DNA of 64,000 nt from Escherichia coli. GTDB lineage: Bacteria; Pseudomonadota; Gammaproteobacteria; Enterobacterales; Enterobacteriaceae. Positions 10,742 through 11,456 of the stretch are shown in pieces (the first letter of the stretch is position 1; every line of letters starts with the position of its first letter). Made by a program: the position numbers and the translations under genes. The notes beneath the pieces were generated by a model. That model was not told where the DNA came from, searched no databases, and was given only the letters and a program-made list of their open reading frames with translations. Location of the stretch: assembly GCF_013122565.1 (NCBI RefSeq), contig NZ_CP053258.1; one strand, given 5' to 3'.

Positions 10742-11065
10742 TTACAGCAGCACCTCCAGCCCGTGTTTTTGCACAATGCTGAGCAGTTTTAATGAAATGC
10801 CATTGGGGCGTTTAGCGCCACTTTCCCATTTTTGTACAGTTGAAACGCTGGTATTGAGATAGTGAGCGAAGACGGGCTGACTCACTTTTAATTTTTCCCG
10901 CAGTGCTTTTATCTCAACAGGTTGTAAGTCTTGCACGCTGGTCAGGCAGGCTTTGTCAAAAGTACGCATTGTTTCGGCAGAAATAGCATCGACGCTGGAC
11001 AATCCAGCCGCTGCGCTGTGAATAGCCTCAAATGCAGGACTTTTAAATTTAGTTTTTGCAGTCAT
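10742..11065 (-). CDS. HigA-2-like antitoxin (C-terminal XRE-type HTH), 107 aa
   Basis: C-terminal HTH segment QPVFAHYLNTSVSTVQKWESGAKRPNGISLKLL; start overlaps the stop of the upstream toxin ORF by 17 nt. Confidence 0.7.
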   Translation of the reverse strand: MTAKTKFKSPAFEAIHSAAAGLSSVDAISAETMRTFDKACLTSVQDLQPVEIKALREKLKVSQPVFAHYLNTSVSTVQKWESGAKRPNGISLKLLSIVQKHGLEVLL

Positions 11066-11408
11066 AGCAGATCTCTGTCAGTTCTTTAGTGTTAATCATT
11101 GCTGTTAGTTGGGCTTTCGTCAGGAAGGCATAATGCTTTGCAAGTTCACGAAACCCAGCCAGTTCCTGACTATTGATGTTCGACATATCCTGTTTTGCAT
11201 ATAAAAACGTGTAAAACCAATTGCTTCCCCCTTTTGCCAGAATAATTGCACGCTCACGATTTTGGTGAAGGCGCTTTTTAAAAACGCCACCACCAAGTGC
11301 ATCAGCTTTACCTTGCTCCGTTTCTAAAATGGCCCGGCACAACTCTTCATCTGTTATTGCATGAGACCTGGCTTCCCTTGCAAACCATTTGGTTTTAAAC
11401 ACGCGCAT
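11049..11408 (-). CDS. HigB-2-like toxin (RelE/ParE superfamily), 119 aa
   Basis: Small basic protein resembling HigB-2 of Vibrio (from memory); toxin-first arrangement with an overlapping HTH antitoxin gene. Confidence 0.7.
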   Translation of the reverse strand: MRVFKTKWFAREARSHAITDEELCRAILETEQGKADALGGGVFKKRLHQNRERAIILAKGGSNWFYTFLYAKQDMSNINSQELAGFRELAKHYAFLTKAQLTAMINTKELTEICYDCKN

Positions 11409-11427
11409 ATCGTTGAGGTCCTGTTAT

Positions 11428-11456
11428 TAAAGTATATCACCAAGTGCAATACTTTA
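11428..11456. promoter_or_regulatory. candidate toxin-antitoxin operator: inverted repeat TAAAGTAT-N13-ATACTTTA about 20 bp upstream of the toxin start
   Basis: Palindrome read directly from sequence; an operator role is inferred from typical autoregulation of type II TA modules. Confidence 0.3.

Follow-up and report, generated by a model that had tools for sequence, protein, structure and literature searches.

A probable chromosomal HigBA2-family type II toxin-antitoxin operon between yicN and nepI of Escherichia coli, with its proposed mechanism and ancestry

The window analysed here, a stretch of 64,000 nucleotides of Escherichia coli DNA, harbours two small, adjacent and co-oriented genes between yicN and nepI (Table 1). 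The toxin gene lies upstream of the antitoxin gene, the antitoxin gene is convergent with yicN, and the toxin gene is divergent from nepI. The list of open reading frames agrees with the sequence-only reading, which had described two overlapping genes on the minus strand, coding for a toxin of 119 aa and an antitoxin of 107 aa in reversed order. An offset of -17 between toxin and antitoxin is kept in most orthologous loci, and the 17-nt overlap is read as translational coupling inside what would be one operon.

In RefSeq the toxin carries the name "type II toxin-antitoxin system RelE/ParE family toxin" and the antitoxin the name "helix-turn-helix domain-containing protein". Under these names, the exact sequences of both proteins are found on more than 1000 public contigs. 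PGAP places the toxin start at a GTG at position 11402, whereas the open reading frame starts with the ATG at 11408. The ATG is favoured, because an N-terminus of the form MR[VI]FKT is kept among the orthologues. The pair is thus an ordinary, already annotated toxin-antitoxin (TA) module of the HigB2/HigA2 family, of a kind already known. The literature search returned no experimental work on either of the E. coli genes, and nothing on the O157 locus tags or on the toxin in connection with nepI or yicN. The Salmonella orthologue appears in lists, as a TA module of the RelE superfamily, and in one functional study, which was retracted.

Table 1. Positions of the features at the yicN-nepI locus, numbered from the first nucleotide of the window.
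Feature	Position	Strand	Basis or remark
REP/BIME-like element	10636-10735		Between the convergent yicN and antitoxin genes
Variable segment, 840 bp	10702-11541		Comparison of module-bearing and empty alleles
Antitoxin gene, 107 aa	10742-11065	-	ORF list; C-terminal XRE-type HTH
Overlap of toxin 3' end and antitoxin 5' end, 17 nt	11049-11065	-	ORF list
Toxin gene, 119 aa	11049-11408	-	ORF list, ATG start; PF06296 / HigB2-type, RelE/ParE superfamily
Shine-Dalgarno AGGA of the toxin gene	11419-11422	-	Alignment; lies within conserved ACAGGA
Operator palindrome TAAAGTATTGCAC-TTG-GTGATATACTTTA (minus-strand reading), predicted	11428-11456		Inverted repeat scan and conservation
Putative extended -10 TGATATACT	11431-11439	-	TGnTATA(G/C)T kept in orthologues
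Conserved core CAC-N3-GTG of the predicted operator	11438-11446		81 related loci
Conserved palindrome	11517-11532		Toxin-nepI region

The toxin belongs to the Pfam family PF06296 ("RelE"), with residues 1-113 matching positions 1-120 of the 120 in the model (E 9.8e-42). This was the sole Pfam match; PF05015 and PF09907 (HigB of Rts1 and K-12) did not match, and the Pfam search did not place the toxin in PF15723, to which the MqsRA toxin belongs. HigB-2 of Vibrio cholerae, represented by a reference sequence identical to PDB 5JA9_C, scores weakly to PF06296 (E 3.3e-8), and was assigned to this family in a superfamily survey of 2025 (PMC11980606). No NCBIfam model matches the toxin. Two family profiles built for the toxin, from 25 and 39 relatives, retrieved zero chains from the PDB, even at E 10, and the comparison of the toxin with HigB2 by hhalign gave an E value of 1.4e-3 and a probability of 17%. 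Since the direct sequence similarity is marginal, the link to HigB2 rests on the Pfam family, the fold, and a curated alignment of the active site.

The AlphaFold2 model of the toxin has a pLDDT of 89.9. When it was searched against the PDB with Foldseek, ranks 1-11 were all occupied by V. cholerae HigB2, followed by other RelE, HigB, and ParE toxins. The query-normalised TM-scores to HigB2 were 0.53-0.57, with 0.44 for the top-ranked chain, and the structures of K-12 HigB appeared low in the ranking, with E 0.06 or worse. As far as the model goes, this settles the predicted fold of the toxin as RelE/BECR, closest to HigB2. The assignment to the RelE/ParE superfamily that had been made from the sequence is thereby upheld, both by the full-length PF06296 match at the level of E 1e-41 and by the HigB2 structures at the top of the fold neighbours. 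A C-terminal helix-helix-strand unit of the toxin, at about residues 88-115, is part of the Pfam model and absent from HigB2, and the six-residue basic loop of HigB2 is absent from the E. coli toxin.

Residues K44, R46, R53, and K72 of the toxin align with K49, R51, R64, and K84 of HigB2, and Y70 aligns with Y82. The passage of PMC10098735 that cites PMC5416850 gives K49, R51, R64, Y82, and K84 as the five active-site residues of HigB2. The columns of K44, R46, R53, and K72 are invariant across an alignment of 17 sequences that includes HigB2 and the Coxiella toxin ToxP. K44, R46, R53, Y70, and K72 are the predicted catalytic residues. With the toxic Coxiella ToxP, the E. coli toxin shares 31% identity (E 1e-18). 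By analogy with HigB2 (PMC5416850) and ToxP (PMC10098735), the toxin is a putative ribosome-dependent mRNA endonuclease.

The antitoxin matches the Pfam families HTH_3 (E 1.2e-7) and MqsA_antitoxin (E 1e-5), the resemblance to MqsA being confined to the C-terminal half of that protein. Every NCBIfam match of the antitoxin remained below its cutoff, including the MqsA model with 41.1 of the 61.8 bits required. Its best sequence match in the PDB is V. cholerae HigA-2 (5JAA; E 8e-10), and the modelled HTH superposes on the C-terminal domain of HigA2 with an rmsd of 0.9-1.4 Å and an identity of 40-41%. The identity to Coxiella AntitoxP reaches 55% (E 7e-37). These matches agree with the earlier description of a 107-aa antitoxin with a C-terminal XRE-type HTH, and the likeness of the pair to HigB-2/HigA-2, for which a profile search had been suggested, was recovered through PF06296 and HTH_3, with the structures in agreement.

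Residues of about 46-102 of the antitoxin are predicted to form the XRE-type HTH, a DNA-binding and dimerisation domain, and about residues 1-45 are predicted to be the toxin-binding part. The N-terminal segment is conserved in the alignment. In a fused toxin-linker-antitoxin model, computed with a paired alignment of 33 pairs, antitoxin residues of about 7-40 had a pLDDT above 90, which would fit a defined, toxin-bound conformation of this segment.

The sequence-only reading had pointed to a palindrome about 20 bp upstream of the toxin start as a plausible operator. The palindrome is present, with arms TAAAGTAT at 11428-11435 and ATACTTTA at 11449-11456, and its near edge lies 20 nt from the ATG; however, the conserved part is the centre of what had been taken for an N13 spacer. 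The palindrome extends to 13-nt arms, 11/13 complementary, around a 3-nt spacer. Within the toxin-nepI intergenic region of 227 bp, 1% of shuffles reach an 11/13 arm pair and 4.8% a perfect 8-nt pair. Considered within this region alone the palindrome is only modestly unusual, and it is convincing because it is conserved across species. Among 81 related loci of gamma-, beta-, and alphaproteobacteria, 77 have the core CAC-N3-GTG within 100 nt upstream of the toxin gene, against about 0.02 occurrences per locus expected by chance, and 63 have the longer form GCAC-N3-GTGC. An alignment of ten syntenic enterobacterial genomes shows no variation in the two triplets CAC and GTG, in the TAnA-TT that follows, or in the ribosome-binding site ACAGGA; the outer TAAAGTAT arms are found in Escherichia only. 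The palindrome is accordingly described here as a predicted autoregulatory operator for the antitoxin.

The promoter-proximal half-site overlaps the extended -10 TGATATACT, for which other species carry TGCTATAGT. No good -35 element is present at the toxin promoter, which is putatively of the extended -10 type. The scan for consensus promoters and terminators found nothing, because it requires a -35 element for promoters. An exact repeat of the 11-nt core inside the toxin gene, at 11291-11301, was considered as a second operator and rejected; it is attributed to chance, since in the nearest relatives within Escherichia it is disrupted by synonymous substitutions.

We consider it very probable that the two genes form a chromosomal type II TA operon of the HigBA2 family, composed of a PF06296 toxin and an XRE-HTH antitoxin, with the mechanism and ancestry proposed here. 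A single transcript would arise from the extended -10 promoter, located about 25 nt before the toxin start, and from it the toxin would be translated first and the antitoxin by coupling through the overlap. The toxin, with its RelE-like fold, would cut mRNA in the A site of the ribosome by means of the five predicted catalytic residues. The N-terminal 45 residues of the antitoxin would fold onto the toxin and neutralise it, and its C-terminal HTH would dimerise, bind the CAC-N3-GTG palindrome over the -10, and repress the operon. Toxicity, ribosome dependence, neutralisation, and autorepression are proposed by homology to HigBA2 of V. cholerae and ToxP/AntitoxP of Coxiella.

On the yicN side, the module is bordered by a REP/BIME-like element, as had been suggested for the far side of the module. 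Its multi-copy status confirms this: the 38 nt at 10664-10701 occur in at least 40 places per genome in 5425 of 5426 E. coli genomes. The match to Rfam is weak (naRNA4, a REP-derived family; 26.9 bits, E 0.054, below the gathering threshold). The part of the REP up to 10701 is common to the empty allele, and a degenerate inverted arm at 10718-10734 is found in the module-bearing allele only. As it is found in both alleles, the REP lies outside the variable segment and belongs to the shared flank. It probably serves as a 3'-end hairpin for both transcripts, those of yicN and of the antitoxin.

The module was found in 1716 of 5426 complete E. coli genomes, always as one chromosomal copy, and in 1715 of these the yicN-nepI junction was matched. 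O157:H7 Sakai (ECs_4597/ECs_4598) and ST131 are among the carriers. One allele, in which 41 bp of unrelated filler replace the 840-bp segment, is shared by 3667 genomes (68%), including K-12. In K-12 MG1655 and in BL21 the spacer between yicN and nepI measures 210 bp and contains no gene, so that the module is absent from both strains, as the sequence-only reading had supposed for K-12. The best local alignment of the 41-bp filler covers 16/19 bases inside the toxin gene and is equalled by 6% of shuffles (p = 0.055-0.06 or higher). Comparison of the filler with nine other species gave no better alignment, and it is not recognisable as a relic of the module. A "third", decayed allele with 78% identity in strain HS-02 was discarded as an assembly artefact caused by homopolymer errors.

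This distribution confirms that the junction is polymorphic, and a recent acquisition of the module as an accessory insertion between yicN and nepI in some E. coli lineages, the interpretation proposed in the sequence-only reading, would predict such a presence/absence pattern. Such an acquisition would also be in line with the GC content of the variable segment (43.7%, against 51-53% in yicN and nepI), with the REP situated exactly at the left breakpoint, and with relatives on plasmids of other taxa. However, low GC shows a foreign origin only at some earlier time, and the segment possesses no flanking direct repeats, integrase, or transposase. The empty allele carries the filler and not a clean target site. 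In the plasmid set, the only highly identical homologues (99% and 65%) come from two records of chromosome size; true plasmid and phage homologues remain below 60%, the exception being a chromosomal contig of Salmonella classed among the phages.

Other taxa have the module at this site as well. Genomes of Escherichia cryptic clades, of Citrobacter amalonaticus, and of six Klebsiella species, K. indica, K. michiganensis, K. oxytoca, K. grimontii, K. spallanzanii (with the yicN side alone visible), and K. pneumoniae, carry it between nepI and yicN. In Salmonella it adjoins nepI as STM3777/STM3778, with a PTS island between it and yicN. The identity to the window ranks alike for toxin, antitoxin, NepI, and YicN; in Citrobacter it is 91% for NepI, 83% for YicN, and 73% for the toxin, and in K. 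pneumoniae 80%, 67%, and 65%, respectively. Because the module is syntenic in other genera and its divergence tracks that of the flanking genes, it is regarded as ancestral at the nepI site, and a recent insertion is very improbable. On the most economical reading of these sequences, the module would already have been beside nepI before Escherichia, Salmonella, Citrobacter, and Klebsiella diverged, and the K-12 state is best explained by a deletion, with one loss in the K-12-type allele and separate losses in other taxa. The sequence missing from the K-12-type allele extends to within 95 bp of the nepI start. Citrobacter freundii and Kosakonia lack the module; C. freundii has a different spacer, of 96 bp, which suggests that its loss was independent.

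An intermediate state is found in ECONIH1 and 137 further genomes of the same haplotype, in which the toxin is triply disabled and the antitoxin is identical to that of the window. The start ATG is changed to ATA, W8 to a stop codon, and one nucleotide is deleted at 11092. A toxin is expected to be lost before its antitoxin when an active TA pair decays. A dead toxin beside an intact antitoxin fits the decay of such a pair, and fits an independent role of the antitoxin as well. The latter would be the case if the pair were domesticated or decaying, with a weak or inactive toxin and an HTH protein kept for regulation of its own, for example of nepI. We regard this as quite unlikely for the window, whose toxin ORF is uninterrupted and keeps the full set of five catalytic residues, which are invariant across the alpha-, beta-, and gammaproteobacterial family. 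The 138 genomes with the identical antitoxin would speak for domestication, although their toxin-first loss is the order expected from an active pair. Similarly, toxin and nepI share a divergent control region of 212-227 bp with conserved blocks, but its only CAC-N3-GTG site is located at the toxin promoter, about 190 bp from the nepI start. Two further points are in favour of a domesticated pair: the persistence of a single locus next to nepI across four genera, unusual for a TA pair, and the weak toxicity reported for the Salmonella orthologue, where STM3777 was reported to slow the growth of E. coli only slightly (PMC3868539, retracted).

A related proposal is that the HigA2-like repressor was co-opted into host regulation, acting for example on nepI or on the conserved palindrome at 11517-11532, and that the pair has been fixed since before the split of Escherichia, Salmonella, and Klebsiella. 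This proposal has a low probability in our view. If it were true, lineages that kill the toxin would keep the antitoxin for its host-regulatory role. The gene nepI codes for a purine-nucleoside exporter.

Regarding the biological role, phage defence by abortive infection could be considered in place of stress response or selfish persistence, with the same molecular mechanism. Toxins of the RelE/ParE superfamily are more and more often associated with defence (PMC11980606), and the antitoxin matches a phage family of unknown function, phrog_2104, over its full length (E 1e-26). PADLOC gives the toxin no match, and its matches to the antitoxin are weak and of a generic HTH type. The neighbours are housekeeping genes for transport and purine metabolism and do not form a defence island, and the module is fixed at its locus and vertically inherited, without the usual turnover of defence genes. 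A role in phage defence is thus unlikely.

As a TA operon of the HigBA2 family, the pair adds a well-supported member to the TA list of E. coli, absent from K-12 and present in O157:H7, ST131, and other pathogenic lineages, an addition that matters little beyond bookkeeping. The locus also offers a natural decay series, from the intact module through a dead toxin with a live antitoxin to the full deletion, and provides evidence that vertical inheritance can keep a TA pair at a single locus over long periods. For the proteobacterial subfamily of HigA2-like antitoxins, the related loci suggest an operator consensus (TA)GCAC-N3-GTGC(TA), which the Coxiella study did not describe.

Among known systems, HigB-2/HigA-2 of V. 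cholerae (VCA0468/VCA0469; PDB 5JAA, 8A0X) shares with the E. coli pair a PF06296 toxin encoded by the first gene. HigB-2 has the RelE-like fold, is the best solved neighbour, and its five catalytic residues align with those of the E. coli toxin. Similarly, HigA-2 combines an N-terminal toxin-binding region with a C-terminal XRE-HTH (41% identity, about 1 Å rmsd), and in both systems a single inverted-repeat operator, a predicted one in E. coli, overlaps the -10. Nonetheless, the toxins are only about 20-24% identical, so that neither a plain sequence search nor a profile search of the PDB reveals the link, and the E. coli toxin has the extra C-terminal helix-helix-strand unit and lacks the basic loop. 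The operator of V. cholerae HigA2 is TGTACGC-N5-GCGTACA (PMC11006873), in contrast to CAC-N3-GTG in E. coli, and, in line with this, all four base-contacting residues of HigA-2, R68, E71, N72, and R77, are replaced by S75, Q78, K79, and A84 in the E. coli antitoxin. The two systems have their architecture in common, with a predicted difference in DNA specificity. Moreover, V. cholerae HigBA2 is a superintegron cassette, whereas the E. coli pair occupies a fixed chromosomal locus.

The closest experimentally characterised relative is ToxP/AntitoxP of the Coxiella burnetii plasmid QpH1 (CBUA0028/CBUA0027), with an antitoxin 55% and a toxin 31% identical to those of E. coli. PMC10098735 reports toxicity, inhibition of translation, binding between toxin and antitoxin, and promoter binding for this pair, with AntitoxP binding the PtoxP promoter in vitro. 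ToxP possesses the C-terminal extension of the E. coli toxin and, unlike it, the basic loop insertion. The operator core is the same and is also located at the -10 (CACTTAGTGATATAGT in Coxiella, CACTTGGTGATATACT in E. coli). The PtoxP promoter consists of TTGACA, a 17-nt spacer ending in the CAC-N3-GTG core, and TATAGT; it thus includes a -35 of consensus type, in contrast to the E. coli promoter, which would rely on its extended -10. The Coxiella pair further differs in being plasmid-borne and acting in plasmid maintenance.

STM3777/STM3778 of Salmonella Typhimurium is the positional orthologue, in the same orientation by nepI, with 70% identity for the toxin and 81% for the antitoxin; it differs in the island for PTS and sugar utilisation between the module and yicN. 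HigB/HigA (YgjN/YgjM), RelBE, and MqsRA of K-12 are also type II systems with mRNase toxins of the RelE/ParE superfamily, and similar to the present pair, the toxin gene comes first in K-12 HigBA and MqsRA. However, the toxins of the three systems belong to PF09907, PF05016, and PF15723, none of which matched here. In RelBE the antitoxin gene comes first, and RelB is of the ribbon-helix-helix type; in the present pair the gene order is reversed and the antitoxin carries an HTH. The HTH of MqsA resembles that of the E. coli antitoxin, but MqsA possesses a zinc-binding (CxxC) N-terminal domain, which is absent from the E. coli antitoxin.

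The intergenic region between the toxin gene and nepI contains a palindrome and a strongly conserved block (table below). Within the block, TTTAACGTTTT and GCAAC are invariant in the ten syntenic enterobacterial genomes aligned, and conservation of the palindrome across the same genomes is partial. The segment deleted in the module-free K-12 allele includes the palindrome, and the deletion ends exactly at the edge of the block (11541/11542). Therefore, nepI control sequences located further upstream of the block may differ between the two alleles. The palindrome could be a regulatory site, either for nepI or for the module.

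Features in and around the toxin-antitoxin module
Feature	Position	Strand	Remark
REP-derived nucleoid-associated RNA naRNA4	10670-10735	+	weak Rfam match, 26.9 bits vs gathering score 59.5, E 0.054
CACCAAGTGCA, first copy	11291-11301		within toxin gene, A-L-G-G codons
CACCAAGTGCA, second copy	11438-11448		operator core
Palindrome TTCGAG-CAGC-CTCGAA	11517-11532		toxin-nepI intergenic region
Strongly conserved block upstream of nepI	11545-11600		alignment of ten syntenic enterobacterial genomes
3613-aa ORF	13022-23863	+	dozens of near-identical Ig-like repeats

On the other side of nepI, the window carries a 3613-aa ORF, which corresponds to the inverse autotransporter adhesin IatC according to the RefSeq annotation of a matching genome. 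This ORF lies between nepI and the position that yicS occupies, directly after nepI, in K-12 and BL21, and thus represents a second accessory difference from K-12, adjoining the module. At the opposite end, just past the antitoxin stop codon, a REP pairs with its degenerate inverted copy in a BIME-like hairpin, the second arm of which is present only in the module-bearing allele. The naRNA4 match scored well below the Rfam gathering threshold.

The centre of the palindrome upstream of the toxin (the operator core, CAC-N3-GTG) shares an exact 11-nt direct repeat with the toxin gene. This repeat is probably due to chance, since synonymous changes interrupt it in the nearest Escherichia relatives.

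Among the comparison genomes, E. coli ECONIH1 harbours a toxin gene with a lost start codon, a stop codon in place of W8, and a 1-nt deletion (window equivalents 11406, 11386, and 11092, respectively), together with an intact, identical antitoxin. An exact 60-nt match to this dead-toxin haplotype was found in 138 complete genomes. In E. coli HS-02 (NZ_CP172818.1), the equivalent of window 10700-11400 is only 72-85% identical to the window across the two genes, while identity in the flanks is 96-100%. The HS-02 region abounds in long homopolymers of T, C, and G and does not look like a real allele; its appearance is that of a consensus or basecalling failure confined to this part of the assembly.

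Start codons were also compared with their annotation. For the E. coli toxin, PGAP chose the GTG at 11402 as the start (117 aa), which looks wrong; all orthologues retain the ATG at 11408, with which the protein begins MR[VI]FKT. The annotated start of the Coxiella gene CBUA0028 (ToxP) looks wrong as well, lying 30 codons too early, so that the annotated gene spans its own -35 and -10 elements (26086-26175 of the Coxiella sequence L085).
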